A stretch of DNA of 63,804 nucleotides, filler included, from an uncultured bacterium (GTDB lineage Bacteria; CAYUVA01), in assembly GCA_964448115.1 (NCBI GenBank). It is 3 parts of 3 records of this genome, joined end to end, with 100 filler letters (N's around TTAATTAATTAA, not from the genome) between each part and the next. Parts side by side here need not be neighbours in the genome. Positions count along the whole stretch, not along the records: positions 29,500 to 57,927 come from CAYUVA010000050.1; 2 more parts are not named here. The stretch is one strand, 5' to 3'. Shown one piece after another: positions 2,636 through 60,346 of this stretch (within the stretch, counting starts at the first letter, position 1; every line of letters begins with the position of its first letter). Both the position numbers and the translations under genes were made by a program. The notes under the pieces were generated by a model that saw only the letters and a list, made by a program, of their open reading frames with translations, did not search any database and was not told where the DNA came from.

Positions 2636-2652
2636 CAGTGGCGCGCTTCCAG

Positions 2653-2735: not shown

Positions 2736-2781
2736 GTCTCTATCATGTCTTTAACTATCTGCATCCTTATTAGCATTCCTA

Positions 2782-2854
<73 letters not shown>

Positions 2855-2965
2855 CTGTAATCGAGTAACCATCTTGGGGCAGCCGATTATATCCCGCTGT
2901 CCTACATTCACTTTCATATTCGTCTTTATCATTGCATCCATCCTCAAGATTGATGCAAAGAGATA

Positions 2966-41059: not shown

Positions 41060-41109
41060 TTTCTTAGCGTTGAGATATTACCCGCCATTACGCCACAATA
41101 CAAGTCGGC

Positions 41110-43304: not shown

Positions 43305-43389
43305 AATACCCCTCAAGCATCGAAAGTTAAAGGCAGAAGGCAGGGAAATTATGATGCGCGAAAACGGGTTGTCTTCATGGGAAAGTAAT

Positions 43390-44916
43390 CTAAAGCGTTC
43401 TTATCAAAGCCTCCACTAGTCCCTCTGCGGTGTACCGCTTCGCTTCGACTATCACCTGCAAGCCATGCTCTCTTGCTGTTTTTGCGGTTACCGGCCCGAT
43501 ACAGGCAGCCTTGATCTTTGAACGGCAGTGCTTAATGTGCTCCTTGGAGACCAGGCTCATGAAGTTGTTGACCGTTGAGCTGCTGGTGAATGTGCATATA
43601 TATTGCTCGTCCTTATCCCAAAGCCCACCTATTTTTGCTTTCTGGTCATCTCTGATGACGGTTTTATAGATCGGGATCACCAGCACCTCTGCTCCCATCT
43701 CTCGCAGCCCACCAGGTAGTTCAGACGGCGCCTCAGCAGCCCTGGGGATCAGAATGCGTGTTTTTTGCTGCATATTGAGATCCTTAAATGCCTTAAGTAA
43801 TCCCCGTGATGAGAACTCTTCTTTAGGCACAAGATCTGGTTTGATGCCCCTATCAGCCAGTTCCTCGGCTGTCTTTTCACCTACTGCTGCAACGCTGTTC
43901 ATGCACAGATGCCTGGCATCGTAACCATGTTTTGATATCTCATCGAAGAATATCTTTACGCCGTTTATGCTGGTGAATATTATCCAGTTGAACTGTTCCA
44001 GTTCTGTAATCGCCTGATGAAGTGGCTCATTCGGTCTTATGGGAACGGTTTGTATGGTTGGTATGGTGATCACCTCGGCGCCATGGTACTCCAGTAGTTC
44101 TTTTAATCTCCTTGATTGATCAGGAGCCCTGGTTACGATCACTTTTTTTGCGAATAATGGTTTTTTCTCCAGCCACATTATCTGTTCGCGCAGCTTTACC
44201 ACCTGTCCGACAACCAGTATTGCAGGCGGCTTGATGCCCTCTTTTCGGGCATTTATGGCGATATCTTTTATCGTCGAGGTGATCGTTTTCTGAAACGGGG
44301 CTGTTCCCCATTGAATGAGCGCAGCCGGTGTGTTTCCAGGTAAGCCATTTGCCTGCAAGCGCTCAGCGATGTATTCGAGATTCTTTACTCCCATCAAAAA
44401 TACCAGTGTACCACCTATAGTAGCCAGCGCATCATAGTTTATCGCCTCTTGTGTCTTCTCGTCTGATTCGTGCCCGGTAATGAAGGTAACCGTTGATGCG
44501 TAATCTCGATGGGTGATGGGGATGGCTGCGTAAGCCGGCGCTGCGATGGCTGAGGTTATGCCGGGGATGATCTCGAAGGGTACATCATGCTCGGCAAGCA
44601 TCTGACATTCCTCTCCTCCACGCCCGAAGACAAAGGGATCCCCGCCCTTTAGCCGGGCAACTGATTTCCCCTCACCAGCTTTTTGAACCAGCAGTTCATT
44701 GATCTGATCTTGTAAAAGGGTATGGCTGGAAGCCTTCTTGCCAACATAGATTAGTTCTGCATCCGCCCTGGCGTACTCGAGCAGATGCGGATTGGCATGG
44801 TAATCATATACGATGACATCTGCCCTTTGGATCAGCTTTATGGCAGCTAGTGATACCAGCCCGACTGCATAGGGACCAGCCCCTATTAAATATACCTTTC
44901 CCTTTTCAGCAATCAT
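43390..44916 (-). CDS. cobA: Uroporphyrinogen-III C-methyltransferase/uroporphyrinogen-III synthase fusion (CobA-HemD)
   Basis: YLIGAGP, RLKGGDPFVFGRGGEE, then HemD IFTSINGV, FTSSSTV, IGPVTA. Confidence 0.95.
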   Translation of the reverse strand: MIAEKGKVYLIGAGPYAVGLVSLAAIKLIQRADVIVYDYHANPHLLEYARADAELIYVGKKASSHTLLQDQINELLVQKAGEGKSVARLKGGDPFVFGRGGEECQMLAEHDVPFEIIPGITSAIAAPAYAAIPITHRDYASTVTFITGHESDEKTQEAINYDALATIGGTLVFLMGVKNLEYIAERLQANGLPGNTPAALIQWGTAPFQKTITSTIKDIAINARKEGIKPPAILVVGQVVKLREQIMWLEKKPLFAKKVIVTRAPDQSRRLKELLEYHGAEVITIPTIQTVPIRPNEPLHQAITELEQFNWIIFTSINGVKIFFDEISKHGYDARHLCMNSVAAVGEKTAEELADRGIKPDLVPKEEFSSRGLLKAFKDLNMQQKTRILIPRAAEAPSELPGGLREMGAEVLVIPIYKTVIRDDQKAKIGGLWDKDEQYICTFTSSSTVNNFMSLVSKEHIKHCRSKIKAACIGPVTAKTAREHGLQVIVEAKRYTAEGLVEALIRTL

Positions 44917-44978
44917 GCCAGCAAGAATAATAGCACCAAATCAAGGCTCTGCAAAGCATGCCCAACCGGTAAGATGTT

Positions 44979-45007
44979 TTGACATTCAAGAGATTTTATA
45001 GTAGGAT
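44979..45007 (+). promoter_or_regulatory. Putative sigma-70 promoter
   Basis: TTGACA-17-TAGGAT upstream of the KamA-like gene. Confidence 0.55.
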
Positions 45008-45117
45008 AACGATTGCTTCGGATAAACTGGGTAGCGTTGGAAGCTAGTTATTGCAAGGTGTCATACTAGGGCTTCTATGCAACATTACAAACTATTTAAA
45101 AACAGGAGAGTATTATT

Positions 45118-46965
45118 ATGAAAACCGCCAGATTATCTCTACAAGAATTCATCAAGCTAGACCTCGACCAGGCAAACCAATTACTATGGTCGGCAAACCA
45201 TGAGATAACAGGACTGCTTGGAAGACACGATGATCTCGAAGCACTTCGTAAAAGCCTTTTCGATTACCTTGCTAAAAGCGAGCTATGGGTGCTTCAGGCA
45301 GATAATAAATTGCATGACCTGGAAAAGTCCGTGGTCAGGCAATGCATCCGAGTGCTGCGCAACATCATAGCACCGATCAATGAAAGTCGAACCGACTATA
45401 GCGCGCTGAGGACTTTATGGGCGCTTGCACGAGGTGTAACTACCCCTGCACAGGCTGGAATCAGCGCAGGATTTATCGCCGAGTTTTTCTACCTGTTCAG
45501 GGGGGTGCGCGGAGAGCTGGATATTTATAAAACTCCATTGGGAGAGGATTCTGATGGTGCAGAGTTCCTTGAATACCATGGCAGTGAAGCGGCTACCAAG
45601 CGATCCGATGAGTTGGATCGCATTGCCCGGGAGATGAACAGGTACTTCGCAAATTATCCTTCGGGCTTGGAGCCTGATGTTATCGAGCGTCGCAACGATA
45701 ACAAGGATCGTATCTTGAGATACTTTGCCTCAGCACAACAAGACTGGGAGGATTACCAGTGGCATCTGAAGCATATCATTCGAGATGCAAAGACGCTGGC
45801 TGATCTTATCGAACTCGACGAGGTTCAAATAAAGGCAGTTGAAAAGTGCAGAAAATACCGCATACCCTTCGGCATCACGCCGTACTACCTCAGCCTTATG
45901 GAACCAAAGAAGGATATGCGCATAGATGCGGCGGTAAGGGCACAGGTCATACCGCCTCCGGATTATGTGAAGCAGATGGCTGCCAATATCAAACAAAGGG
46001 AAGCAATGTTCGACTTTATGGGTGAGCACGATACCTCTCCGATCGACCTGATAACCCGAAGATACCCCAAGGTCTGCATCATAAAGCCGTATAATACCTG
46101 CTCGCAGATATGCGTTTACTGCCAGAGGAACTGGGAGATAGACGATGTCTTCATCCCGTCGGCAATGGCATCGAAGGAAAAGCTCAAAGCAGCCCTCGAC
46201 TGGCTGGAGCAACACCCGATGTTGGGGGATATACTTATTACCGGCGGCGATCCCTTCATCATGTTAGATAAGGTCATCGAGCCTATCATTGATCGCCTGG
46301 CATCCTTTGATCATGTGTATCGAATAAGGATCGGCACCAGGACGCCGGTTGTGCTTCCCCAGAGAATAACCGATAGCCTTTGCGAGATACTGGATCGGGC
46401 ACTAGAGCCGGGCAAGCGCGAGGTAGGCATTGTAACCCATTTCGAGCACCCTTACGAGGTTACCCCCCAGGCTATGGAGGCGGTCAGGAAACTCAGGAAA
46501 CTTGGCATCGGAGTATATAATCAGCAGGTCTTTACCTACTACAACTCAAGAAAATTCGAGACCGTGAAACTGCGCATGGACCTAAGAAAAATAGGAGTCG
46601 AACCTTATTATACCTTCAACATGAAGGGCAAATCGGAAACCAGGGCATATATGACTCCCATAGCCAGGTTACTACAAGAGCGAAAAGAGGAGGCTAGATT
46701 GATCGCCGGCATGGGCAGGACCGATGAACCGGTCTTTAATGTGCCGAGACTGGGCAAGAATCACCTCAGGGCATGGCAGGATCACAATGTATTGATGATA
46801 TTACCCGACGGAAGCAGGGTATACGAGTTCCATCCATGGGAAAAGAATATCCAGAAAATGCCCACTTACATCCATACCGATGTCCCCATTTACGAATACC
46901 TGCTAAGGTTGAGCAAGGACGGGGAGGATGTAAACAACTACAAGAATATATGGTATTATTACTAG
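45118..46965 (+). CDS. KamA-family radical SAM protein (lysine 2,3-aminomutase-like) with long N-terminal extension
   Basis: GITPYYLSL, CSQICVYCQR, TGGDP, RIGTRTPVVLPQRI, PRLGK (PLP lysine position). Confidence 0.9.
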   Translation: MKTARLSLQEFIKLDLDQANQLLWSANHEITGLLGRHDDLEALRKSLFDYLAKSELWVLQADNKLHDLEKSVVRQCIRVLRNIIAPINESRTDYSALRTLWALARGVTTPAQAGISAGFIAEFFYLFRGVRGELDIYKTPLGEDSDGAEFLEYHGSEAATKRSDELDRIAREMNRYFANYPSGLEPDVIERRNDNKDRILRYFASAQQDWEDYQWHLKHIIRDAKTLADLIELDEVQIKAVEKCRKYRIPFGITPYYLSLMEPKKDMRIDAAVRAQVIPPPDYVKQMAANIKQREAMFDFMGEHDTSPIDLITRRYPKVCIIKPYNTCSQICVYCQRNWEIDDVFIPSAMASKEKLKAALDWLEQHPMLGDILITGGDPFIMLDKVIEPIIDRLASFDHVYRIRIGTRTPVVLPQRITDSLCEILDRALEPGKREVGIVTHFEHPYEVTPQAMEAVRKLRKLGIGVYNQQVFTYYNSRKFETVKLRMDLRKIGVEPYYTFNMKGKSETRAYMTPIARLLQERKEEARLIAGMGRTDEPVFNVPRLGKNHLRAWQDHNVLMILPDGSRVYEFHPWEKNIQKMPTYIHTDVPIYEYLLRLSKDGEDVNNYKNIWYYY

Positions 46966-46983
46966 ATCATGGTGGTTTGAGCA

Positions 46984-47967
46984 TCAAGGCATATCAGGGG
47001 AGATAACGAGTAATCCCTGTCCCCAGGTGCAAATATATATGTAGCCAGCCTTATCCTGGTAGATATCATAGATGAAGCTGTCGGCGGGGATGTTGATATC
47101 GCCTAAGAATGGCACCTGTTGGCTGACCATCCATCTGCCATGGATGAACAAGCTCAAGCCACCTTTTGCGGTTCCAGCCCAAATAATTCCGCTTGTATCG
47201 ATAATCAGGTCGGCAATGAAACCTGATCGCAGGCTGCTAGATTTGCGCCATATCTTTTTTGCATCTTTATCAATCAAGGTAATTCCGTTGCCCCATGATC
47301 CATGCCATATCCTTCCTTTAGAGTCCACTGCGACCGAGAAGCTGTTATCTGCGACCAGACCATCATCGGTGTTGATAAGCTCCCAGGCATCCCCATGTTT
47401 CCTCACCAATCCTTTGTAGGTAGCGCACCAGATTTCTCCATCCGGGCTTACCTCGATATCATTGACAAACCAACTTGGGAAGCCATTCTTCGGGTTATGA
47501 TACCTGACTCCCTTTTCATCGTACTGCGCCAAGCCATAGCCTCGGATGCTGAAGTACTTGGTATCATTAGCATCTACAGCCCCGCAATAGAACCACTCGC
47601 CGGGCAATCCATGCTTCTTGCGAAACACGGTTATCTCATCATCTTTTATCAGCGCTAATCCCTGATCGGTGCCCACCCAGATATTGCCTTTCTTATCAGG
47701 GAGAACAAAGTAAATATAATTATTCGGTAAGCCGTCTTTTTGGGTATAAACACGCATCTGGTCGCCATTTTTTCGCATCAATCCAGCATCGGTTCCGACC
47801 CACAGATTACCCTTGCTATCCATATTGACACATAAGGTTACATTGGATGGTAAGCCATCATCGGTGGTCCATACCCCCACCTGGCGGTTGGCGCTCGCTG
47901 ATGAGGCGGCAAGGCATATCATGATGATAGATAGAAATAATCTCCTTTGTACACTAGGTCTTTTCAT
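46984..47967 (-). CDS. Secreted beta-propeller protein (two-component regulator propeller repeats)
   Basis: Signal peptide; repeated DGLPxN...DxxGxxWxGT. Confidence 0.85.
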   Translation of the reverse strand: MKRPSVQRRLFLSIIMICLAASSASANRQVGVWTTDDGLPSNVTLCVNMDSKGNLWVGTDAGLMRKNGDQMRVYTQKDGLPNNYIYFVLPDKKGNIWVGTDQGLALIKDDEITVFRKKHGLPGEWFYCGAVDANDTKYFSIRGYGLAQYDEKGVRYHNPKNGFPSWFVNDIEVSPDGEIWCATYKGLVRKHGDAWELINTDDGLVADNSFSVAVDSKGRIWHGSWGNGITLIDKDAKKIWRKSSSLRSGFIADLIIDTSGIIWAGTAKGGLSLFIHGRWMVSQQVPFLGDINIPADSFIYDIYQDKAGYIYICTWGQGLLVISPDMP

Positions 47968-49001
47968 TCTGGTAAAAGCTTCTTATCTACGAGTAGAGAA
48001 TATAAACGCTGTGCGATCAGCTCGTCTCCAGCGTCTGTCGGATGCAGCGGATCGTATAGGTAAACCTGGTTATATGGCTCATTTGTTGGTTGCATTTCAG
48101 GTATCTCCAGGAAATGAGCCTTATGTTTTATAGCGGTCCTTTTTGCCATAAGGTTGTAGTCATGTGTGTAAAGAGTGATGTTTATGGGGTGAAAGTAGGG
48201 GGTCTTGTGCCGGAAGCGAAATGGGAACTGGATGATCACGGTCTCAATATCGTGCTGCTTATTGAACTGGATTATCTCAGCCAGGTTCTTCACATAATCC
48301 TCTAGCGCAACTCGTGATACTATTCGTTCTTTTTCGATCGGATGGCTTGCAAAAGACTGTATGGCTCGGATCAATAACCTATAAAAGCGCAGCTTGTGTA
48401 GCAGCCTTTTGACTCCTACGGCATAATCGCTTTTCTCGAATATCTCCTTATCGGAGAAGCGGTTTATCCCCGCATCACCAATGGCGGTACAGACGGTGAT
48501 CATGTCCGGCTTTAGCTTGATTCCCCTTTCCCTTATGTAATTTAGGATCTGGAAGCTGGAGTAGCCGACTACGCCGCCATTTATGACCCTTATGTCCTTA
48601 TTTGGACGATTCCTATCTAAAAGGGACTGCAACTGAGCAGGATAGGTCTTGTCTTGTGCTCTGCCTAAGCCGAAGGTTACCGAGTCGCCAAGGCACATTA
48701 TCCGAAACTGATCCGGCGGCTTGTCGAAGCTGATCTCCTCGTTTCGTAATCCTAGTGAGTTGGTATTTACCACCGTGCCCTCTGCCCAACCTTGTTTAAT
48801 ATTTGGCTTTAGGCTCCAAAAAAGCAAGAAATCATCGCGATATTCAGCCCTATGTCGTCTCCCGAAGGTCTCGGTCATTATGAAAAAGGCGGTGTTATCC
48901 TGCTTTGCAACTCCGAAGATCCATAATAGAAGTTCCACGCCACCGAAGAAGATGCAAACAGATAAGAGCATCACAAGGATGTTTAAGAAAAATTTTCTCA
49001 T
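47964..49001 (-). CDS. Membrane-anchored SGNH/GDSL hydrolase
   Basis: LGDSVT, GVVGYSS, DPLHP. Confidence 0.88.
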   Translation of the reverse strand: MRKFFLNILVMLLSVCIFFGGVELLLWIFGVAKQDNTAFFIMTETFGRRHRAEYRDDFLLFWSLKPNIKQGWAEGTVVNTNSLGLRNEEISFDKPPDQFRIMCLGDSVTFGLGRAQDKTYPAQLQSLLDRNRPNKDIRVINGGVVGYSSFQILNYIRERGIKLKPDMITVCTAIGDAGINRFSDKEIFEKSDYAVGVKRLLHKLRFYRLLIRAIQSFASHPIEKERIVSRVALEDYVKNLAEIIQFNKQHDIETVIIQFPFRFRHKTPYFHPINITLYTHDYNLMAKRTAIKHKAHFLEIPEMQPTNEPYNQVYLYDPLHPTDAGDELIAQRLYSLLVDKKLLPE

Positions 49002-49047
49002 AACATACGAGGAGTGCTTTTACGATAAATATCAGCAAGTATCAAGC

Positions 49048-49623
49048 TTAATTTGCAGGTTCTGGGTGTTTCTTAGGTAAAAAATTGGATGCGATTATTA
49101 TCTTGAGTAGATCACCTGGCAGAAATATTATGCATCCGCTTAACAGGATATGCCAGGAGCCAAGGTGGGGCAATAGAATATACAGCCATAACAGCCCGAA
49201 CAGGTATATGGGGAGGCTTGAGATGCCTAATAGCGCAATCTTAGATAGATTTGAGTCGGTTCGATACCGCTCGAAGAGGTAGCCAGCTAGATAGGCAGCG
49301 AATATGAATCCGATTATATACCCCGCGGATGCCGGTGCTGCCAATAGGGCATAGGCATTTTTTAGATTGGCGAATACAGGCAATCCAATGAATCCCTCGC
49401 TAATATAAACCAGGATGGTTGCCACGCCGAGCCTTGCACCTAAAAGCGCTCCAACCAGCAATACCGGTAAGGTCTGCAAGGTTATCGGCACAGGACCGAT
49501 ATTGAAGTTCACCTGTGCACTTAGCGCAATTACGAGGCTTCCCACCAAAACAGATGCCAACTGAACCCTTAAGTCCTTAAGAACAAAGGGGGATTGAAAT
49601 ATTCGCCTAGCTATTATGCTCAT
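49048..49623 (-). CDS. bioY: Biotin transporter S-component BioY
   Basis: PVPITLQT, GLPVFA, GYIIGF, FLPGDLLK. Confidence 0.93.
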   Translation of the reverse strand: MSIIARRIFQSPFVLKDLRVQLASVLVGSLVIALSAQVNFNIGPVPITLQTLPVLLVGALLGARLGVATILVYISEGFIGLPVFANLKNAYALLAAPASAGYIIGFIFAAYLAGYLFERYRTDSNLSKIALLGISSLPIYLFGLLWLYILLPHLGSWHILLSGCIIFLPGDLLKIIIASNFLPKKHPEPAN

Positions 49624-49764
49624 CGAGTGCTGCTCCTGGTAATGAAGTTATCATCAGCCTAGCAAGTTACCATTACACTTGGAGAATTTCAATATACAAA
49701 ACTGGGTATCACTTGGAGCATACTGGATTTTTACAATCTTAACCGATAATATTAGAAGTCGATC

Positions 49765-52152
49765 ATGGATACGCTGGGATCATATCAAAATAAGCTTGTA
49801 ATATTCACTTTTTTGCCCCTGTTCCTCGGTTGTTTTGTTATCGCTCTATTTCCATGCCTCGCATCCGAGTTCGAGATAATCTCTGCATCCTGTTACAGCA
49901 GTTTTTATTATGATGTTGAGGTTGCCGGCAACTACGCCTATTGCAGCGGCATAAGGGGTGTAGATGTGCTTGATATCACGGATCTTCAAGCGCCGGCACT
50001 GCTGGGGACGGTTAATACACCCGGCTCGGCGAGGGGGATGTTTTTAGGCGGCGAATACCTTCTTGTGGCTGATGGCGAGGCGGGTCTGCAGGTGATCGAT
50101 ATCAGCAATCCCGGCTCTTTGTTCATCAAAGGCTCTTACGACACCACCGACTGGAGCTTCGGGGTCTGTGCATACCAGCAACGAGCTTATGTCTGCGACG
50201 ATACCGGCGGCTTGGTAATCCTCGACCTAAGCGACCTCAATCAGCCTCTTTTTCTGGGCAAATGGGCTAATGCGACCTGCCAGGCAAACGACTGCAAGAT
50301 CCTGGATACCGGGATCAAGCTCTACTGCCTGATCGCCGACTATCTCTCTGGCTTGCAGGTAGTCGATGTAAGCGACCCGGCAAATCCGAGCTATGTGGGG
50401 CATCATACCATGGGAAGTGGACACGGATACAACCTGGCTCTGGTCGGCGATTATGCTCTGGTCGCTTATGGAGCAAACCACCTTATAAGTTATGATATAA
50501 CAAATCTCTCCTTTCCTGTCTATGAATGGCAGATGGACACCGATGGTGAGTGCGTTGATATCCATGTTCATGGCAATCTAGCCATCATAGCCGATGATGT
50601 TGGAGGAGTCGCAATAGCAGATATTTCCGATCCCTCCGAGCCAAGTCGCCTGGCGCAGTTGGATAATTTCGTTTACGCCTATGGAGCCTGGGGCGATGAT
50701 AGCAGGATACTGTCCGCCAATGGCTGGCAGGGGATCGACATCTGGGAATCGAGCGCCAAAGACCAGGCGGAGCTTAGGGGCACCTATCGTACCTATGGCA
50801 ATGCCAAGAGCGTCGCCTTCAACGGTAGGTACGCGCTGGTTGCGGAAGGCACCAAGGGGATAAGCTCTGTCGATTTTACATGCTCGCCCCCCCGAATGCT
50901 CGATACATTGGATGTCGGCAGCGCAGAGAGGGTGGTTTGCAAGGGGAGCATCTTCTATGTGGCGGCAGGTGAGGGTGGAATTAAGACCATAGCACTCGAC
51001 GATCAGGGAAAGATACAGGTCCTGGATAGCATCGCCGGCAGCATGGTGCAGTACTTCGAGAACCTACATGTGGTAGGTAATTATTGTTATGTAGTGGGCA
51101 GCGGTCTTGGCTTGAGCATCTATGACATAAGCAACCCGTCTGATATTCGGTGGCGGGCGTCGCTGAGTCCAATATCGTTGATGGGAAGCGATGTCTTCGT
51201 GTTTGGCAACCGGGCCTATGTTCCGAGAATTGATAGTGATTGCCTGATCGTAGATGTCTCGGATGCATCATCTCCAGCGCCCCTAGGTAGCATCCCGCAG
51301 CAGGGTGATTTGCCTTATACGACCGTAACCGCCTTCAGCCGCGGGATCGGGGTCTATGTCGTGCTCGGCAGCCTGAATAGAGCCTTGAAGGTGTATAATG
51401 CAACCGATCCGCTCAATCCGCAGCTTGTCGCCACCTGGGGCTTGACAGCAGCGCCGCAGGACCTAGTGGTTTTCGGCAATGTCCTTCTTGCAGCGATCCA
51501 TTACAACGGCTTGCAGGCTCTTGAGATAAGCGATCTTACGCAGCCGCAGCCGGCGGGGATGCTCAATACCTATGGATATGCTGTTGATATGAACTTGCAT
51601 GGTGATCATATCTATGCAGGCGACACTTATGCAGCGCTAAAGGTGCTTTACTTGACGCCGACACCCAGAGCCACTGCGACGCCAAGCCAGAGCGCTACTT
51701 GTGCACCGACCGGAAGCACGGCGACGGCGACTCCGACACCGACAGCCACAGCGACCCCTTCGCCATCGAAGACACCTACACCAACAGGCTCTGCGAACAC
51801 ATCTACACCGACAGCTACACCTGAATTCAATGTTAATATCCCCATAGGTGGATACATGGAGACGAGGCTGTCTGAGCTCACCGGGGGCAGCATGAGGCTG
51901 GTCGCCATGCTATCATGCACTGCGCCCATCGGTCAGGGCTTGGAGATTTATTATGCAGGCATAGGGAGCGGGATCTACCTGTACGATGATGGTCTGCATG
52001 GCGATTTTGGTGAGCTTGATGGGATTCAAGGTATTAGCTTTGATTTCGCCTATGGTGATCTGCTCGGCGCTGGGGGGATGCACCTGCTTGAGCTTGGTGG
52101 TCGATTTGGCTCGCTCGAGAGGCAACTCTGGCCGCTTCTTGTTATTGAGTGA
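49765..52152 (+). CDS. Secreted LVIVD-repeat protein with Pro/Thr linker and conserved C-terminal domain
   Basis: Signal peptide; repeats such as GLQVIDISNP; TP-rich tract ~51653-51822; tail WPLLVIE. Confidence 0.9.
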   Translation: MDTLGSYQNKLVIFTFLPLFLGCFVIALFPCLASEFEIISASCYSSFYYDVEVAGNYAYCSGIRGVDVLDITDLQAPALLGTVNTPGSARGMFLGGEYLLVADGEAGLQVIDISNPGSLFIKGSYDTTDWSFGVCAYQQRAYVCDDTGGLVILDLSDLNQPLFLGKWANATCQANDCKILDTGIKLYCLIADYLSGLQVVDVSDPANPSYVGHHTMGSGHGYNLALVGDYALVAYGANHLISYDITNLSFPVYEWQMDTDGECVDIHVHGNLAIIADDVGGVAIADISDPSEPSRLAQLDNFVYAYGAWGDDSRILSANGWQGIDIWESSAKDQAELRGTYRTYGNAKSVAFNGRYALVAEGTKGISSVDFTCSPPRMLDTLDVGSAERVVCKGSIFYVAAGEGGIKTIALDDQGKIQVLDSIAGSMVQYFENLHVVGNYCYVVGSGLGLSIYDISNPSDIRWRASLSPISLMGSDVFVFGNRAYVPRIDSDCLIVDVSDASSPAPLGSIPQQGDLPYTTVTAFSRGIGVYVVLGSLNRALKVYNATDPLNPQLVATWGLTAAPQDLVVFGNVLLAAIHYNGLQALEISDLTQPQPAGMLNTYGYAVDMNLHGDHIYAGDTYAALKVLYLTPTPRATATPSQSATCAPTGSTATATPTPTATATPSPSKTPTPTGSANTSTPTATPEFNVNIPIGGYMETRLSELTGGSMRLVAMLSCTAPIGQGLEIYYAGIGSGIYLYDDGLHGDFGELDGIQGISFDFAYGDLLGAGGMHLLELGGRFGSLERQLWPLLVIE

Positions 52153-52179
52153 ATGCCTAAACACGGTTATCTTCTCCTA

Positions 52180-52207
52180 TTGACCTGGTGAATGCTGATA
52201 CTATAAT
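52180..52207 (+). promoter_or_regulatory. Sigma-70 promoter of tRNA-Thr(CGT)
   Basis: TTGACC-16-TATAAT, 15 nt upstream of the tRNA. Confidence 0.65.
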
Positions 52208-52222
52208 AGGTAGCTCACGGTT

Positions 52223-52294
52223 GCCGGCGTAGCTCAGTGGCAGAGCGGCTGATTCGTAATCAGTAGGTCGGGGGTTCAACTCCCCCCGCCGGCT
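52223..52294 (+). tRNA. tRNA-Thr (CGT)
   Basis: Acceptor GCCGGCG/CGCCGGC, anticodon loop TT-CGT-AA. Confidence 0.94.
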
Positions 52295-52337
52295 TGAGGT
52301 ACGATGGTTCCAGGGACTGGAAGATAATCAAGGATGT

Positions 52338-52481
52338 CTATACTTGATTTTTAGGGTCTCCCTGTAATACCCATCTCGCCATAGGCATAGCAACGGAACT
52401 TGGAGTAAAAAACTGACCATACTTCTTCCTGTGTTCCTTGGTGGTCTCAGCAATGTACTTTGACTCAAGAATTGATGACAT
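52338..52481 (-). pseudogene. N-terminal fragment of an N6-adenine DNA methyltransferase
   Basis: MSSILESKYIAETTKEHRKKYGQFFTP then stop; no SAM-binding or catalytic motif. Confidence 0.75.
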
Positions 52482-52710
52482 CCTCAACAAATACTTCATT
52501 ATCGAGATATGCCCTACCACCACTAAAGGTAACATAAAAGACAAGGCGCCACCGATTCAATTCCTTCATGACAGATTGATGTTCAGGCATCTCGATCTTA
52601 CCAATAAGTTCTTTACCTACTAAAACATTTATCTTTATCGTGGTCTTACCTTGATTTTTCACACCTCGTTCTATTGAAAATATACTCCCAAGTTTCGGTA
52701 TTAATTTCAA
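52465..52710 (-). pseudogene. C-terminal fragment of a putative restriction endonuclease (AccI-like from recollection)
   Basis: AT-rich partial ORF KNQGKTTIKINV...KELNRWRLVFYVTFSGG overlapping the methylase start. Confidence 0.5.
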
Positions 52711-52735
52711 TAGGTAACAATACCTACTTGGTCCC

Positions 52736-55700
52736 CTACTCCACCACGGTCAGGTACGGCCACGGGTGGCTGTGGCATAGCTCCTGCCAGGACTGCATCT
52801 CGATAAGGTAATTGCCTATATATGCGCCCGGTCCAACTACCAGCGGTCCAAAGCTGAAGACCCCGGGATCGCCCTCGCTTAGCTCCAAGCCAAGCTCCTC
52901 GCCTGCCATGTATAGCTTCACCGTGTCGATATCCATACCCACGAGATCCTGCACATAAGCAAGTATATACAAGATGCCTCCGCTTGAGCGAGTTATACTG
53001 GTGGTCATGTAGCCGGCAATGAATATCTCCGAGGCGACCTCCTGCGGGTATTCGTAAGGACAGCCAGGCGTTACCGTTGGAGTGCAGGTCGGCGTGTCGG
53101 TCGGAGTGGCTGTCTCGGTTGCAGTCGGCGTGCTTGACGGCGTCGGCGTTGTGCTCGGAGTTGGAGTCCGTGTTGGCGTGGCTGTCATGGTCGCTGTGGG
53201 CGTGCGTGTCGGGGTCGGGGTCGCCTTGGGTACCCCGCAGATGCTTATATCATCGAGATTCCAGCCACAGTACTGAACCGAGCCGTCGGTTGGTCCCATG
53301 ACAAAGCGTATGTAGATATCGCTCAAGCCACGATAGGAGCTTAGATCGAGCGTTATCGGCTTCCACTCACCATCGTACATGGATGAACCGTTCTGCCACT
53401 TGGTTACAAAAGTGAACGGTCCCCAGGAAACTTGGATCTTGGCGTGATCGTAAGTACTTGACTCAACGCCGAGCCAGCGATAGAAACTAAGCTCAACCTC
53501 ATCCATTTGGCTGAAGTCCAAGGGACCTATGGTGCAGTATTCTTCATCCATATTGCTTGGATAGCAGCCATCAGGATTGGAGCTGACCACATAGTCGCCG
53601 GTGTAACCGCTGGTCGGGTCTTCCCTTCCACTGGTGCAGCCACCGGTAGGCTGTACCCACGCCCAGTCCCCGGTGAACTGGAAGTCCGGCGCAAAATCCA
53701 TGTTCCAACTATAGGGACAATAGTAGGCGGTCAGGGTTACGCTGAACTGAAATTCCGCCTGGTAACCATTCTCGCCGACTACATTGAGAGTGAACCAAGC
53801 CATCTCCCCTTCAGGTGTATATACATCGGAACTCCAACGAAAGTGCGGAGTAATGGTGCTCCCCTGTCCCCGTCCGGGGATTGGGTTAAAGTCCGATGTG
53901 CCATCGATTATGGTTATGTATTGATTGTTGGTGCTCAAGATGCCACTTACTTGGGTCATCAGCGCGCCGCCAAGATTTTCTAGTGTAACCTCCATGGCAA
54001 GCTCCTCGCCAGGATCGGCAAAGCCGTCGTCATCTGGATCATCGAGGATGCTGAGGGCATAGAATTCGAGATGCGGCGCATAGCCGATGATGCCGAAGTT
54101 CACATAGCCCTCACTCTTAGTATCGCTCGAGCTCCAATGAAGGGTAAACTGCCCCAGGTGCCCATCCGGTATATCAGGGGACACCTTGATGCGAAGATGC
54201 GGAGGTTGCGAGGTCGCCTCCTGGTTGTTGCCGATATCGCCGAAGCTGACCTCGCTGTTTAAGATGGTCATATATGGATCACCGCTGCTAACCGTACCCT
54301 CGACCCCGCTTGCCTCAATCCCAAGATTACGCAAGGTTATGAGAACATCGATGGTCTCGTTGAAGTCAGCCCTGCCATCACCGTTGCCGAATACCGTGTC
54401 ATCAAGCTCTATACTTTTTAGCAATATCTGGGGCTGGTTACAGGATGCGACATAAGAGATCCTGATATCATCGATGTTCCATCCACAGTATTCTACAGAG
54501 CTATCAGAGGGACCCATCACCCAGCGCAGATAAATAGTCTCCTGGAAATCAGCATAGCTGGAGATATCAAACTGTTGCGATACCCAGGAACCATCATCCA
54601 CAGTGCTGGAGTTCTGCCAGAGGGTTGACCAGGTACTGCCATCCCTGCTTATTTCAAGCGCTGCGTGATCCCAAGTAGATGATTCCACGCCCAGCCAACG
54701 ATAGAAGCTCAAGGTGGTGTCGAACGAAGCGCTGCAATCTATCGGCAAGGTAGTTAGATACTCCTCGTCCATGTTTTCCGAGTAATCGCCATTCAAGTTA
54801 TAGCCATACACATAGCAGCCGGTATAGCCGCTGGTTGGGTCACCGCCCTGCCCGGTGGGAACGCCGAACTCCCAGTCTCCAGTGGTATCCCAGCCAGGGT
54901 CGGTATCAAGAGGCTCATCAAGCAGGTAAAGCCGAATCAGCGTGTGGAAAGCATAATATGCTCCTTCATTGTCATCTACGGTCATATTATTAGCTCGGTC
55001 CGATGCCTGGATATAAAAGCTATACTCGGTGCAGCCGGTCAGATCCGACAAAAGCATAGTATGCTCGGTTTTAAGCGCACCGCTGATTGTAACCAGGTTC
55101 AGATCTGGATAAACGCCGTAAAACACCATTGAGCTAGCTGGCTCATTGGTGCTCCAACTAACCAGCGCGGAGGTATCGGTTACTTGGGTTACAGAGACAT
55201 TGCTTATCTGCGAAGGGATGCAGTCAACCTTTGAGCGATAGGTCTTAGGCACATTATAGTTGCCCAAGCCATCATCGGCATCGATGTATGTAACAGTTAT
55301 ATTATCGTCGTTGGCTACCAGCAGATCGCCATGTTTGCCATAAGTTGAGGTTGTATTGATGCTGCCGGTGAAATAGCCGGATCCAGCAGGTGTCTCGGTC
55401 AGCCATAGCTGATATCCGACCGGGTCGCTATCCGAGACGATGGTTACATTCACATCTCCCGCATCGCGCAGGTCAGCATCGCCAACGCCGATATTTACCG
55501 TGTCCGCGCAGTTGTAGTACATCCGGTCCAAAAAAACCCTGCCATCGGAGAAGCCTAAGTCCCCGCTCACAACCAGCGCATAAGGCTGCGGGCCTTGAGG
55601 AATATTGATCGATCTGATCTTGATTATGTAAGAGCCAGGATCTGGCTCAACGATGCGAACACACTCGACATTATTCAAGCTATCAGCATCGCCATCAGGA

Positions 55701-57616
55701 ACCGAGACTCCATCAACAAAATTGTTACCCTTGTAGGTGGTCGAGTTATGGATTACCTCAAGGTCGAGGTTGTTGACCAGGTCGTATGCAGAGCCAGGCG
55801 TTCCTGGATAATCTGTCCAGACCAGGGTAATCTTCAATTCCTCATCGGAGCTTATGACCGTTACGATGTAGGTATCTTCCTCGTTGATGTTGGTAAATCC
55901 AGCCGAGTCTTCTACAAAGAGATCCCTGTCATCCCCCTCGAAGTACATGGCCCTGTCGAGGTGGACTCTACCCCAGCCCTGTCCTTTTGCGGGGATGTCG
56001 CCATGAGCGCTTCCATCGCCAGTGTAGGAGCCGGTCATGTTGTCAGCGCTGTTAATCAACATGGCTTTGACCAGGGCAGATGAGGGACTGAAGCCGAAGC
56101 TCTCGTTAGGCATTCCCATCGGATACCACCCCTTCTCGAAGTACTCTCGAATGAGGGCTGAACAGCCAGCTATCCCTGGTGTTGCCATAGAGGTTCCGCT
56201 CTTATCGTCAGTGCTACAGTTAAAAGTGCCTATATCGTAATCGCAATCAGCAGAATATATATCAGCACCACACAAGGTAACATCCGGCTTATATCGTCCA
56301 TCGTCCGTAGGACCGTGGCTGGAGAATGATGCCATGTCCTCGGCTGATGAGCCTGCTTCAGTGGCTCCGCAGGTAACCACATTCTTGCAGATGCCTGGAG
56401 TACGACAACTGTTATCCGAGGGTCCCTCATTCCCAGCAGCGAAGCAGGTTACCAGCTCCTTGTAGTCCCAAAGTGCCTGGTCAACCTCCTGGGCAAGCGC
56501 ATTGTATTCCCCATAAGAATAGGGATCTCCCCAGCTATTGGAGTGGATGCGAGCACCCTCGTCATTAGCCTGCTGGAGCGTGTCGTACATGCTGTCCGGG
56601 ATCTCCATATCACCAGGTACGCTTGTGTCCTGGATGATCAGCTTACATTGGGGTGCCATGCCGTCGCCGGTGTCCCGGTAGCCCGGCGTGGCGAAGTCAT
56701 CGCCGGCTATGGTCCCTGCCGTGTGGGTACCGTGGCTGACATTGTCGTAGTCGTTGTATCCCAGGATATCATGATAGGCGACTATCTTGCGCTGGTTATA
56801 ATTGGGCGTCTCGCCGGGGATGCCTTCGGCTTCATCCCAGAAGTAGCACATGTCGATGTCTGCGCCAGTGTCCAGTACAGCGGCGATCTGACCCTCGCCG
56901 AAGATCCCCTTGTCGTGGATCGGCGTTGCCTGGTCGTTGTACAATCCGCTCTGGCTTACCCAGACAGTCTGGTCGTTGCAAAGCTCCGCATCTGGATAGC
57001 GCTCGATCCACTGGACTTCCATCAGTCGGGCTATGGCCTCGGCAGCTTCCAAGGTTTTTGTCCTGGCAAAGGTCGCCTTAATATAGGTCTTGTAACGAGT
57101 GGATATCACCTTATGCACCTGTCCGTTGAGACTTTTTATAGTCTTGGTTGTAGAGGAAGGCGATTCGCCCTTAAAAAGAACTATCCGCAGCTCGAAGAGA
57201 TCTTCCTTAGCCTCTGCGACCTGCTTATCGAGTACCGGTGATAGCTTGTATCCCGGCTCATAAAAGCCGATCCATCTGATCCAGGGATGATCTTTCAAAA
57301 AACGGTATTTGATAGGATCCAGTTTGATGATAAAAGCGTTCTCCGGCACATAGCCATGATGCCTTAAATCCAGCGATGAGAGTAGATTCTTGTTGTCGCC
57401 GTTGATCTTGCTCGCAAACTGTACAATGTAGTAAGCATCGGAAACGCCACGAATAAAATCGTAGGAAAGCGCAGCCTCGAACACCGATTTGGCTGCCAGG
57501 GGATCAAAGTAGGCATTCTTCGTTTTGATATAAAATCCCTCGTTTGCGGTGGAGACACCAATACCTGTAATTATTACAAGCGCTACGATCATCCTGAGTA
57601 TAGTGGTTTCTTTCAT
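52736..57616 (-). CDS. Large secreted S8 (subtilisin-like) protease with FN3/Ig and duplicated beta-sandwich modules, Pro/Thr linker and conserved C-terminal domain
   Basis: Signal peptide; triad VLDTG, HGTHTAG, SGTSMATP; duplicated TGDW..DPTSGYTG..RWLGVE..CGWNxDD module; tail WPYLTVVE. Confidence 0.93.
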   Translation of the reverse strand: MKETTILRMIVALVIITGIGVSTANEGFYIKTKNAYFDPLAAKSVFEAALSYDFIRGVSDAYYIVQFASKINGDNKNLLSSLDLRHHGYVPENAFIIKLDPIKYRFLKDHPWIRWIGFYEPGYKLSPVLDKQVAEAKEDLFELRIVLFKGESPSSTTKTIKSLNGQVHKVISTRYKTYIKATFARTKTLEAAEAIARLMEVQWIERYPDAELCNDQTVWVSQSGLYNDQATPIHDKGIFGEGQIAAVLDTGADIDMCYFWDEAEGIPGETPNYNQRKIVAYHDILGYNDYDNVSHGTHTAGTIAGDDFATPGYRDTGDGMAPQCKLIIQDTSVPGDMEIPDSMYDTLQQANDEGARIHSNSWGDPYSYGEYNALAQEVDQALWDYKELVTCFAAGNEGPSDNSCRTPGICKNVVTCGATEAGSSAEDMASFSSHGPTDDGRYKPDVTLCGADIYSADCDYDIGTFNCSTDDKSGTSMATPGIAGCSALIREYFEKGWYPMGMPNESFGFSPSSALVKAMLINSADNMTGSYTGDGSAHGDIPAKGQGWGRVHLDRAMYFEGDDRDLFVEDSAGFTNINEEDTYIVTVISSDEELKITLVWTDYPGTPGSAYDLVNNLDLEVIHNSTTYKGNNFVDGVSVPDGDADSLNNVECVRIVEPDPGSYIIKIRSINIPQGPQPYALVVSGDLGFSDGRVFLDRMYYNCADTVNIGVGDADLRDAGDVNVTIVSDSDPVGYQLWLTETPAGSGYFTGSINTTSTYGKHGDLLVANDDNITVTYIDADDGLGNYNVPKTYRSKVDCIPSQISNVSVTQVTDTSALVSWSTNEPASSMVFYGVYPDLNLVTISGALKTEHTMLLSDLTGCTEYSFYIQASDRANNMTVDDNEGAYYAFHTLIRLYLLDEPLDTDPGWDTTGDWEFGVPTGQGGDPTSGYTGCYVYGYNLNGDYSENMDEEYLTTLPIDCSASFDTTLSFYRWLGVESSTWDHAALEISRDGSTWSTLWQNSSTVDDGSWVSQQFDISSYADFQETIYLRWVMGPSDSSVEYCGWNIDDIRISYVASCNQPQILLKSIELDDTVFGNGDGRADFNETIDVLITLRNLGIEASGVEGTVSSGDPYMTILNSEVSFGDIGNNQEATSQPPHLRIKVSPDIPDGHLGQFTLHWSSSDTKSEGYVNFGIIGYAPHLEFYALSILDDPDDDGFADPGEELAMEVTLENLGGALMTQVSGILSTNNQYITIIDGTSDFNPIPGRGQGSTITPHFRWSSDVYTPEGEMAWFTLNVVGENGYQAEFQFSVTLTAYYCPYSWNMDFAPDFQFTGDWAWVQPTGGCTSGREDPTSGYTGDYVVSSNPDGCYPSNMDEEYCTIGPLDFSQMDEVELSFYRWLGVESSTYDHAKIQVSWGPFTFVTKWQNGSSMYDGEWKPITLDLSSYRGLSDIYIRFVMGPTDGSVQYCGWNLDDISICGVPKATPTPTRTPTATMTATPTRTPTPSTTPTPSSTPTATETATPTDTPTCTPTVTPGCPYEYPQEVASEIFIAGYMTTSITRSSGGILYILAYVQDLVGMDIDTVKLYMAGEELGLELSEGDPGVFSFGPLVVGPGAYIGNYLIEMQSWQELCHSHPWPYLTVVE

Positions 57617-57771
57617 TCTTTTGACATCCTTTCTGCTCTAACTTGTAGGTTACTTACCCATGCCTATCTTTGGGAGAAACAACTTAATATATATTGTAAA
57701 TTCCATAAAAATTCAAACTTTCTAAGCGATCCATTACTTCGGAATGTAGAAGCAATATAGACGATAGAAAG

Positions 57772-57927
57772 TTTCTCGTTTTCTTGTTTTCTCGTTTTTT
57801 AGTTTCTTGTTTCTAGTTTAGGGGGTTATTATCCCCCTTCTCTGTCATTCCAGCCCCGCATCAAGGGCGGGATAAACTCCGGCAGGAATACAGTAATCAC
57901 GGGAAGTGATAAAGTGATAAGGTGATA
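57772..57927. repeat. Heptamer-like repeats, REP-like palindrome and GTGATA octamers at contig end
   Basis: TTTCTCG/TTTCTTG/TTTCTAG units; TGTCATTCC...GGAATACAG (57843-57893); GTGATAAAGTGATAAGGTGATA. Confidence 0.65.
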
Positions 57928-58027
57928 NNNNNNNNNNNNNNNNNNNNNNNNNNNNNNNNNNNNNNNNNNNNTTAATTAATTAANNNNNNNNNNNNNNNNN
58001 NNNNNNNNNNNNNNNNNNNNNNNNNNN
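57928..58027. other. Artificial contig linker
   Basis: 44 N + TTAATTAATTAA + 44 N. Confidence 0.97.
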
Positions 58028-58062
58028 CAGTCCTTACCCATGAGGCGCATGATCAACCTATA

Positions 58063-58300
58063 TGTCATCCCGAGCGGAGTCCCGATTTTCGCAAAAATCG
58101 GGATAAAGTCGAGGAATCTCTCCCCCCTTCTTCCCCCAAACTTGGGGAGGGGGTCGGGGGATGGGGCTTCTTGTCTTTTCTTCTTTGCATCTTTGCTTGG
58201 CTAGTTTCTAGTTCCTAGTTCTCCAATTCCTAATTTGCGTTCTTTGCGTCTTTGCGTCTTTGCGTGCTCAACTCTTTCTGTTCTGCGCCTTTGCGTGAGA
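58063..58300. repeat. REP-like palindromes and short tandem repeats
   Basis: GTCATCCCGAGCGGA[TCCCGATTTT..AAAATCGGGA]..GTCGAGGAATCTC; C-rich/G-rich hairpin 58122-58167; CTAGTTY heptamers; CTTTGCGT octamers. Confidence 0.7.
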
Positions 58301-58340
58301 TCTGCGGCGGGTTGGGATTGTGGATCTTCGGTAGTGCTCG

Positions 58341-59111
58341 CTATGCCTTTCTTCTAGCCAGAAGGGTAATCGGGGAGCCGAAAAGCCTGGTCAACCCCAT
58401 ACTACCAAGCAAGCCCTCGACTCTGCGGGTGAAGCCAGGATTGTTCAGCTTGCGATGCAGCTTGAAGGGGAGCACCAGTTCCTTGCTGTAGGCGATAAGC
58501 TCGAAGCCACAATCCTCGAGCAACGGGATAATATCACGCTTTAGCGAAAACACATTATAAAGCTGGGTATCATCCCTAAAGATGGAACGTACCTTCAGAA
58601 GCTGGCGATGTATCCATGCCACGCTTGTGATGCTCGGTATATCGAAGATGACCAGGCGGGAGCTTACCCGGCACATCTGCCGGATCGCACTTTTCCAATC
58701 AATGACATGCAGTATCATGCGCGCCGAGACCACCAGCTCGAAAGCTCCGTCCGAAAAGGGAAGCTGGTGAGCATCGCCCTGAACCAGTAGGATCTCTCCC
58801 TCGGATTCTCCTTCGAGCTTCTCCTTGAACACACCTAGCATCTGAGCGGACGCATCGACCGAGACAACAGGGAATTGCTTGCGATAAAAAGGCAATGAGA
58901 TTCTTCCGCCGCCGGCGCCCAAATCCAAGACAGTGAAGTCAGTGGTATCGATCCCCTCTAAAAAGCTGAATATCTCGCGCTGCTGGATCTCATCGAAGAA
59001 GCGTCCTATCTCGCCGGCGAAGCGTGTAGCCTCAAACTGCCGTGCATGTGAAGGATCACGATAAAACTTGTAGCTATAATGCTCCTTGCCCCTTTTTTCT
59101 TCGTGCTTCAT
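58341..59111 (-). CDS. Class I SAM-dependent methyltransferase
   Basis: VLDLGAGGGR, VDAS, GDAHQLPF. Confidence 0.9.
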   Translation of the reverse strand: MKHEEKRGKEHYSYKFYRDPSHARQFEATRFAGEIGRFFDEIQQREIFSFLEGIDTTDFTVLDLGAGGGRISLPFYRKQFPVVSVDASAQMLGVFKEKLEGESEGEILLVQGDAHQLPFSDGAFELVVSARMILHVIDWKSAIRQMCRVSSRLVIFDIPSITSVAWIHRQLLKVRSIFRDDTQLYNVFSLKRDIIPLLEDCGFELIAYSKELVLPFKLHRKLNNPGFTRRVEGLLGSMGLTRLFGSPITLLARRKA

Positions 59112-60346
59112 CTCTTATTGTCAGTCGGTGGTGATAGATCGGGATGCCTGGAAAGCTCCTTGGAGATCTCATCCATATCGAGCGCTTTTGTCTTTAGTCG
59201 CATCCTGTGAATGTTCCCCTTCTCGACTAAGAGGAACCGTGGCTCTTTGAGCACCCAACCTGCTGAGTTATAGAACTCCACCGAGGGAAGTATCTTGTTT
59301 AAAAGCTCATTGATCTGCTGTTCCACCTGCCTGGATCGCTGATGATGGGAATGACCGAAGATAAACGAGGTTCTTTGCGGATTGGCTGGGCTCCAGCCGG
59401 TAAACTCGTTGAGCACTTGCTGGATACGATGAACAACCCAGATCACCTGTTCCTTGTACCATTGCCTTTGGCTGGTGATGCGCACCCTTATGTTATCCAT
59501 CATCTCAGCCCAGCGCACCTTGGTGATCGTCTCAAGCAGGGTGAGTAATTTGACAATGGCATGTCCGATGAAGGTGCTGTTGTAATAGTCTGCCTGGTGT
59601 CCATGCTCGATAAAGATGCGAAGCTCGGGATCCCAGAAATATTCAAGCACCGAGATGTTGGGTAAAAGGAGCTTCTGGTCCGTAAAGTTCTCGAACCAGT
59701 TGTCGTGATTGCCTACCAGTAGGATGATCCTCTTTATGCGCATGAACTCCCATAGTATCTCGCGATACTTCAATAATATGCTTGAGAGGTCGGTTCTCCA
59801 AAGATCGAAGAAGTCACCATTTATGATCAAGACGCCATCGTACATGTGGATGACCTTCAAGAAGCGGATGAACTTGTCCATCTTGTGGAATCTATCAAGG
59901 ATACCTCTGCCGGCAAGATGCAGGTCGGAGACGATGAATACCCTCTCTTCTCCAAGCGGTTGCTTATCAGCCTTGCCGAACACGGTGCTTCTTCTAAGCG
60001 CCTTTTTAGGGATAAAATTGACCTCATTAAACGCCTGTTGCAACTGGTTTGCCACTGGCGTGTCGATCTCGGAGAGATACAGCTTGGACTGCTGATCCAT
60101 TATCATGCCGGCGAGGATATTGGCTGCCTTTAGCCATAATATGGGGTGGAAGCCGCGCTGGCGGTGATAAAATCTCAGGAAGCGATGAGAAGAGGTGGTC
60201 GGCGTTGGGGATGCTTGTTCAAGCAGCTCATTGATTATTCTTTGGCTATCCATCAGCAGGCTGAGCAATAAATTGTACTGCCCGTTGCGCAAGATGGTCA
60301 GCAGGTAATCTAGATTATTGTAGATGTCAGCAGCCAGCCTAGGCAT
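59108..60346 (-). CDS. Calcineurin-like metallophosphoesterase (LpxH-like core) with N-terminal extension
   Basis: SDLH, GDFFD, GNHD, EHGH, FGHSH. Confidence 0.88.
   Translation of the reverse strand: MPRLAADIYNNLDYLLTILRNGQYNLLLSLLMDSQRIINELLEQASPTPTTSSHRFLRFYHRQRGFHPILWLKAANILAGMIMDQQSKLYLSEIDTPVANQLQQAFNEVNFIPKKALRRSTVFGKADKQPLGEERVFIVSDLHLAGRGILDRFHKMDKFIRFLKVIHMYDGVLIINGDFFDLWRTDLSSILLKYREILWEFMRIKRIILLVGNHDNWFENFTDQKLLLPNISVLEYFWDPELRIFIEHGHQADYYNSTFIGHAIVKLLTLLETITKVRWAEMMDNIRVRITSQRQWYKEQVIWVVHRIQQVLNEFTGWSPANPQRTSFIFGHSHHQRSRQVEQQINELLNKILPSVEFYNSAGWVLKEPRFLLVEKGNIHRMRLKTKALDMDEISKELSRHPDLSPPTDNKR

Follow-up and report, generated by a model that had tools for sequence, protein, structure and literature searches.

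The C-terminal domain (CTD) of type IX secretion system (T9SS) cargo is a small β-sandwich at the end of diverse signal-peptide-bearing proteins, often placed behind a low-complexity linker. Secreted glycoside hydrolases that carry carbohydrate-binding modules (CBMs) classically have a similar build, with a linker rich in Pro and Thr ahead of a terminal β-sandwich. We have analyzed a 63,804-nucleotide stretch of DNA from an uncultured bacterium (assembly GCA_964448115.1; three parts from three records joined by filler, here called the window), which probably comes, judging from its gene products, from the candidate division CSSED10-310 or from close to it. Two of its genes, forming a convergent pair, encode an LVIVD-repeat β-propeller protein and an S8 serine protease, and each of these proteins ends in one diverged copy of a ~105-residue, seven-stranded immunoglobulin (Ig)-like β-sandwich. 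The domain family to which the two tails belong is real and large, and it may serve to dock or retain the proteins that carry it.

The Ig-like tail has the overall terminal-domain layout in common with the T9SS CTD (TIGR04183/PF18962) but, unlike it, mostly comes in two copies, may lie inside a protein, and also occurs by itself. The Ig-like domain of gingipains and PPAD and the BIg repeats of SiiE have a similar predicted fold (PPAD 5ak7, Z = 7.5; SiiE 2yn3, Z = 7.4). The gingipain/PPAD domain takes the same place, directly after the C25 catalytic domain, that our domain takes in a set of PorU-like peptidases, and the Asp/Gly-rich loop of the Ca2+-stabilized BIg-type repeats is likewise present in the tail. 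Sequence similarity to pre-anchor Ig domains and adhesin repeats nevertheless stays under every family threshold, and, unlike the pre-anchor Ig domains of T9SS cargo, the tail is followed by nothing in most proteins. Dockerin/cohesin pairs and SLH domains offer a functional analogy only, being non-catalytic, terminal, often repeated, placed behind linkers and found on many exoproteins. A dockerin does occupy the same position in one CSSED10-310 S8 homolog (E = 1.2e-9), but these modules show no kinship of sequence or fold with the Ig-like tail. The closest named entity is the NCBIfam model NF041940 (choice-of-anchor X), which describes the same motif as the core of the family and whose matches coincide with the domain matches in CSSED10-310 genomes; it covers only about a third of the ~105 residues and is also found in other contexts, in genomes without the full domain.

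Two unrelated proteins of the window end in related tails

The two carrier genes and their parts are located as follows.

49765..52152, + strand: gene for the LVIVD-repeat β-propeller protein, 795 amino acids (passenger 1; open reading frame)
52736..57616, - strand: gene for the S8 serine protease, 1626 amino acids (passenger 2; open reading frame)
49765..49863, + strand: probable signal peptide of the LVIVD protein, about residues 1-33 (judged by eye; long hydrophobic stretch ending Cys-Leu-Ala)
57545..57616, - strand: probable signal peptide of the S8 protease, about residues 1-24 (judged by eye from the translation)
51655..51825, + strand: Pro/Thr/Ala/Ser-rich linker of the LVIVD protein, about residues 631-687 (translation and regex scan)
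53063..53230, - strand: Pro/Thr-rich linker of the S8 protease, about residues 1463-1518 (translation and regex scan)
51826..52149, + strand: tail domain of the LVIVD protein (P0003), 108 amino acids, single diverged copy
52739..53044, - strand: tail domain of the S8 protease (P0004), 102 amino acids, single diverged copy

The passengers are unrelated. The LVIVD protein matches PF08309 in eight stretches (E = 2.1e-53) and, among NCBIfam models, reaches choice-of-anchor B only below threshold (52.9 bits against a cut-off of 100). The S8 protein matches Peptidase_S8 (PF00082, E = 4.2e-39) plus fn3 in Pfam, and choice_anch_J in NCBIfam (NF038128, 35.7 bits against a cut-off of 30, two stretches). 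In both proteins a linker of ~56 residues leads to the tail. All of this agrees with an initial annotation of the window, which had described both genes, their linkers and ~105-residue tails, signal peptides (which the hydrophobic N termini fit by eye), the unrelated passengers and four blocks of alignment between the tails.

The resemblance between the two tails is weak but significant. BLASTP sees only the first of the four blocks (9 of 24 residues identical, E = 0.003), whereas the MAFFT alignment, at 32% identity, places all four in register. When one tail was shuffled 3,000 times, the observed local score of 59 compared with 29.5 ± 5.4 for the shuffled sequences (z = 5.4), and the free-end global score of 52 with 14.4 ± 6.5 (z = 5.8); a single shuffle in 3,000 reached the observed score in each alignment mode. 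Homology is settled by the profile built from the two tails, because it retrieves 317 cluster representatives at E ≤ 0.001 from 1.84 billion proteins, 134 of them at E ≤ 1e-10. The many matches that the initial annotation had expected of such a profile were therefore found, and the domain is not limited to these two proteins.

Both tails also match a family hidden Markov model (HMM) built from 214 instances, over positions 4/5-108 of 109, with 66.3 bits for the S8 tail and 63.2 bits for the LVIVD tail. Nine invariant columns (G9, G20, G21, G59, F61, G69, W102, P103 and L105) are common to the two tails and 17 relatives. Taking as members those sequences with a full-length profile match and the conserved Gly-Tyr, Gly-Gly and terminal Trp-Pro-x-Leu, both window tails belong to the ~105-residue CSSED10-310 Ig-like tail family. 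They are the only two copies that the family HMM finds in the whole window, and they are not in tandem, each protein having one copy directly behind its Pro/Thr linker. The acidic Gly/Asp motif is degenerate but recognizable in the LVIVD tail and largely lost from the S8 tail, which after the central motif is ~10 residues shorter than typical members. Both proteins stop 5 to 6 residues past Trp-Pro, with a β-strand-like segment ending in Glu. A second tail copy lost by frameshift from the S8 or the LVIVD gene was also considered and rejected, the intergenic DNA (52100-52800) holding no remnant of such a copy.

A terminal hydrophobic helix and a basic tail are absent from both window tails, and neither the layout nor the NCBIfam models of PEP-CTERM, LPXTG or GlyGly-CTERM were found on the window proteins. 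Searches of both tails against Pfam and NCBIfam gave no match at E ≤ 1, the T9SS CTD models TIGR04183 and PF18962 and the FlgD-Ig model PF13860 included, in agreement with the initial annotation. The dockerin (PF00404) and cohesin (PF00963) models did not match the window tails either. A word-index search with the S8 tail as query returned only the query itself among 88 candidates, and an ESM Atlas search with the same tail gave weak Ig-like leads only (best 0.88).

Only the core motif of the family has a name

NF041940 is a model of 37 positions with a cut-off of 25 bits. It matches the central acidic Gly/Asp motif of 43 of the 51 full-length relatives at E ≤ 0.001; among ten relatives tested individually, all matched at E ≤ 0.1 and six reached at least 25 bits. 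Neither the window tails nor the whole window proteins match it at E ≤ 1. Since their relatives match and they do not, the window tails are diverged homologs that are not members by the model's own rule. The initial annotation had seen in the domain a candidate new sorting or anchoring system; the domain is not wholly new, its central motif being covered by NF041940 in most relatives.

Two CSSED10-310 genomes that lack the full domain (G012 and G014) have the choice-of-anchor X motif inside four proteins, two of which end in a hydrophobic stretch and an Arg-rich tail (seen by eye; no NCBIfam match). With such ends, the motif there would lie upstream of an anchor-like end rather than replace it. 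The phrase "choice-of-anchor X" was not found in the searched literature, and the papers listed for "choice-of-anchor" concern, by their titles and the opening lines of their abstracts, other letters. NCBI records name the carriers by passenger and not by this domain. The core motif is thus already named by NCBIfam, and the full-length family is otherwise without a Pfam model.

The predicted fold is Ig-like

The fold assignment rests on AlphaFold2 models of a typical relative, P0131, and of the LVIVD tail. The former is predicted as a seven-stranded sandwich (pLDDT 86.7) and the latter as all-β (mean pLDDT 64.1). Foldseek gave no match in the PDB at E ≤ 0.001 (best E = 1.4e-3), and with VIA-align the best match was the Fn3-like module of CbhA (3pe9; Z = 8.8, rmsd 2.3 over 83 residues). 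Seven chains reached Z ≥ 8, all of them Ig- or Fn3-like, with sulfite oxidase Ig domains at ~8 and the PPAD and SiiE domains at the values given above. Scores of this size lie, by the tool's own statement, in the common range. A T9SS CTD chain was not among the VIA-align matches listed, an absence that we do not take as evidence. The structure prediction and Foldseek comparison proposed in the initial annotation thus yield a predicted fold that is Ig-like and nothing more specific. A complex prediction for two copies of P0131 scored 0.00 against a mark of 0.42; it was run without controls and counts neither way.

These structural neighbors bear on whether the tail could be a substrate- or particle-binding module, either CBM-like or a calcium-dependent adhesin repeat, that tethers its carriers to external polymers or surfaces. 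The linker and terminal sandwich reproduce the layout of CBM-bearing secreted glycoside hydrolases, and the neighbors at Z = 7.1-8.8 include the SiiE repeat along with Fn3-like and CBM modules from cellulases and mannanases. The only Pfam matches of the domain, to Big_7, Big_13 and He_PIG, are sub-threshold, as is one to a Ca2+-stabilized adhesin repeat, and they point the same way, as do carriers with FG-GAP, LTD and BNR passengers. However, the structural scores all lie within the common range, no CBM family matches, and the passengers are mostly not glycosidases. A stand-alone form of the domain, found in every positive genome (see below), would also be hard to account for. We consider this explanation unlikely.

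Copy number, position and passengers

Architectures were determined on the best 150 of the profile matches, re-scanned with the 214-instance HMM. Two copies per protein are usual (125 proteins), with one copy in 24 proteins and four in a single protein; five of the 125 two-copy proteins show an extra match under 7 bits, which was discounted. The two positions of a pair are filled by different types of copy: 82 of 93 first copies have another first copy as nearest neighbor, and 75 of 93 second copies have another second copy. The two copies within one protein share on average 38% identity. The segment between them is ~34 residues long, is not Pro/Thr-rich, and contains a conserved Trp.

The last copy lies no more than 6 residues from the C terminus in 122 of the 150 proteins, and in 89 of these 122 the chain stops 5 to 6 residues after the conserved Trp-Pro. 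In the other 28 the domain is internal, with 86 to 388 residues following the last copy; where checked, the following domains are PKD, Big_7 and Cep192_D4/choice-of-anchor-D-like. Two non-terminal proteins are followed by a linker alone and are probably cut at contig ends. None of the 28 ends in a hydrophobic helix and basic tail. The prediction that the domain would always be C-terminal thus holds for most carriers and fails for these 28.

Of the 116 proteins whose initial Met lies well ahead of the domain, 92 passed a crude signal-peptide test, in line with the expectation that carriers would be signal-peptide proteins, and several of the remaining 24 look like truncated gene calls. The passengers belong to 32 Pfam families in 51 full-length proteins, among them FG-GAP (7), LTD (4), PKD (4), S8 (3), PQQ propellers (3) and BNR (3); M14, C25 and β-helix passengers also occur. 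The domain usually sits behind a Pro/Thr stalk on signal-peptide proteins whose passengers are very different. The carriers conserved in the smallest genomes resemble adhesins; they are a 4x lamin-tail-domain protein and an FG-GAP protein, each with two copies of the domain, and a BNR/sortilin propeller with one.

These architectures bear on the explanation put forward in the initial annotation, in which the tail would act as a C-terminal signal for secretion or sorting and be read by an outer-membrane machinery for export or attachment, specific to the lineage and encoded elsewhere, much as Bacteroidota recognize the T9SS CTD. A terminal position in 122 of 150 proteins, 89 of them with a stop 5 to 6 residues after Trp-Pro, together with passengers from 32 families, is what such a signal would show, and the window passengers are moreover of the "choice-of-anchor" kind (B and J), proteins that carry other anchors elsewhere. 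The usual presence of two copies and the internal location in 28 proteins argue against it. We regard this explanation, too, as unlikely, and further evidence on it is given below.

Stand-alone form, PorU-like peptidases and other tails at the same position

Each of the 11 genomes positive for the domain (of 14 surveyed in the phylum; see below) has one open frame of 171 to 264 codons that encodes a small stand-alone protein and matches the profile of these small proteins over its whole length. In this protein a signal peptide is followed by a variable stretch, a conserved Trp segment and one Ig-like domain. In the locations below, L, G and C numbers are our handles.

L006:5656-6309, + strand: stand-alone small protein
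L005:5713-6312, + strand: stand-alone small protein
L001:5680-6318, + strand: stand-alone small protein

Its neighbors (SelA, a GAF-HD protein, a FabF-like protein, Mfd and unknowns) are housekeeping genes, and no conserved secretion gene was found beside it. Both the existence of this secreted protein and the lack of an adjoining conserved secretion gene speak against a sorting signal.

G003, G004 (twice), G006, G007 and G011 encode a C25 peptidase, resembling PorU, whose chain runs directly into a single, terminal copy of the domain. These peptidases match PF01364 at E = 8.7e-76 and NF033707 with ~230 bits, below its cut-off of 420.

L031:1183-4278, - strand: PorU-like C25 peptidase with terminal Ig-like tail
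L032:637-3936, + strand: PorU-like C25 peptidase with terminal Ig-like tail
G006:C20, G007:C40, G011:C27 and G004:C70: further PorU-like C25 peptidases with terminal Ig-like tail

PorU keeps its own CTD, and a PorU-like peptidase that itself ends in the domain, in five genomes, is a parallel in favor of a sorting signal. The same proteins would also suit a passive Ig domain, a folding aid or spacer like that of gingipains and PPAD, with no addressing role: the domain follows the catalytic domain directly, without a linker, the Ig-like domain of PPAD turns up in the structural comparison (Z = 7.5), and the NF041940 motif is named for preceding anchors and not for being one. Against this, a spacer at the far end of a Pro/Thr stalk spaces nothing, a folding aid is unlikely to be common to at least 32 unrelated passenger families, and conservation as a stand-alone protein would not be expected. 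A purely passive role therefore seems quite improbable to us.

The closest homologs of the window passengers do not end in the Ig-like tail. An S8 homolog (L025) and an LVIVD homolog (L026) carry instead an unrelated, unnamed tail of ~115 residues behind Pro/Thr linkers; the two copies are related to each other (BLASTP E = 5e-16) and match nothing in Pfam or NCBIfam.

L025:301-660, - strand: second tail domain
L026:157-516, - strand: second tail domain

This second tail occurs in exactly the same 11 genomes, G001-G011, with 55 to at least 150 matches per genome, and in none of the other three; it was not found in the window (best E = 0.037). Because it is far more abundant, it is the better candidate for the general sorting tag of the lineage. 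By comparison, the 5 to 8 matches of the Ig-like tail per 2.6-3.3 Mb metagenome-assembled genome (MAG) are few for such a tag.

Another S8 homolog, in G008, has a type I dockerin (PF00404, E = 1.2e-9) at the same position behind the linker. After the dockerin comes a region with a weak match to cohesin (E = 0.0014, below cut-off), a hint of cohesin-dockerin docking in CSSED10-310.

L024:5755-6504, + strand: dockerin and cohesin-like region of the S8 homolog of genome G008

Distribution and origin of the window

A pattern derived from the alignment of typical members was scanned against one genome per species for 185,579 species. It gave 26 matches, 14 of which were confirmed, in 10 MAGs, and all 10 belong to one GTDB phylum of 14 genomes whose named records read "candidate division CSSED10-310." The restriction to few lineages foreseen in the initial annotation is thus borne out for all 14 confirmed loci; as the pattern detects only near-consensus motifs, relatives may exist elsewhere. 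The ESM Atlas gave scores of 0.92-0.94 to unnamed clusters that include a small number of Ignavibacteriota, Fidelibacterota and Bacteroidota proteins, which we treat as a lead only, and one S8 carrier is labeled Candidatus Coatesbacteria.

CSSED10-310 is a rare, uncultured, predicted Gram-negative group, sister to Acidobacteriota (PMC8248873). Within the 14 phylum genomes, a set to which the window's own genome does not belong, the domain is present in 11, with 5 to 51 domain matches each; the 5 to 8 matches in MAGs of 2.6-3.3 Mb correspond to ~3-7 proteins. The S8 protein of the window has homologs 44-47% identical over ~1240-1300 residues in four CSSED10-310 genomes, and the window EF-Tu is 79-80% identical to that of two of the phylum genomes, a value that does not give a firm placement. 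At the DNA level, a search of window positions 43000-60000 against the 14 genomes revealed no close relative, the best match being 66% over ~0.9 kb in a radical-SAM gene, in addition to tRNA and linker matches. The window is therefore probably from CSSED10-310 or close to it.

The same genomes were surveyed for the T9SS. Type A CTDs were found in only 2 of the 14, which would leave the role of a general tag vacant for the Ig-like tail if it were a sorting signal. Separately, 10 of the 11 type A matches are in one MAG, G010, mostly on short contigs and several at low contig coordinates, and these matches may be bin contamination. None of the 14 genomes gave a match to PorV (NF033710), for which the Bacteroides thetaiotaomicron control matched under cut-off, or to SprA (TIGR04189), for which the controls were silent too; these counts may speak against a T9SS-like signal.

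A possible docking function

The explanation that we favor, while giving it somewhat less than an even chance, is that the Ig-like tail is a docking or retention module on the mature protein, a reading based on architecture. After Sec export, the domain would not be cleaved off as an export signal but would stay on the mature protein, where, as a non-catalytic dock on a flexible stalk, it would tie proteases, β-propellers and adhesin-like proteins to some part of the envelope or matrix of the cell itself. The acidic loop might bind calcium as the Ig repeats of adhesins do, a guess made from the motif alone. Binding by the window copies may be weaker or of another kind, since both are single and one lacks most of the motif.

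Docking is favored because the domain occurs as tandem repeats, can have other domains after it, exists in free-standing form, has few carriers, and seems to be interchangeable with a dockerin, whereas the exact terminal stop and the diverse passengers keep the signal explanation alive. The place of the choice-of-anchor X motif ahead of anchor-like ends in G012 and G014 and the adhesin-like carriers of the smallest genomes point to docking as well. Of the export or attachment signal originally proposed, the mostly terminal position, the diversity of passengers and the concentration in one lineage have stood; a dedicated export machinery found no support in our analysis, and the tandem, internal and stand-alone forms and the small number of carriers argue against it.

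Several points weigh against docking. The function is drawn from architecture alone, and the structural match is generic and uninformative on function. A terminal position with an exact stop after the last strand is also expected of a recognition tag for a translocon or peptidase, and tandem copies would be compatible with a signal role of the last copy. The per-genome protein counts come from incomplete MAGs. Finally, the window tails themselves are atypical, being single copies that score 63-66 bits against ~100-140 for typical copies and that lack the NF041940 match.

If docking is correct, it could be one part of a larger scheme, in which CSSED10-310 would run a T9SS-independent surface-display pathway with two tags. 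The Ig-like tail would act as the tag for docking, the stand-alone protein as its adaptor or cap, the PorU-like peptidase as a surface-held processing enzyme for the second tail, and the window proteins as cargo. We put this scheme forward as a speculation that is, taken as a whole, quite unlikely to be right.

Surroundings of the two genes

The 583-bp gap that separates the two convergent genes contains a tRNA-Thr(CGT) at 52223-52294 (+ strand). The middle of the S8 protein (residues 690-1307, approximately window 54695-55549, including a choice-of-anchor J region) is massively paralogous in CSSED10-310: 12 of the 14 genomes each have 16 to 38 scored matches to it, with 38-49% identity. Upstream lies a run of glycosyltransferase genes (37961-43316, - strand) encoding a PMT_2-type GT-C membrane protein of 1032 amino acids, a GT4 and a GT2 enzyme, after which come a fused uroporphyrinogen methylase/synthase gene and then a radical SAM gene. 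Elsewhere in the window, positions 962-2855 (- strand) hold a classical tRNA-Thr/Gly/Tyr/Thr - tuf - tRNA-Trp cluster. The window contains 176 N's.

Implications

The full-length family is now defined, where public models capture only a 37-residue motif, and its build is apparent in the tandem pair, the stand-alone form and the copy on the PorU-like peptidase. The position behind the linker, common to the Ig-like tail, a dockerin and a second, more abundant tail, makes these candidate surface-docking parts. They bear on how large exoproteins are displayed and released in a rare, uncultured and probably Gram-negative phylum, and, if the scheme with two tags were true, CSSED10-310 would have a sorting and attachment pathway without a described counterpart.

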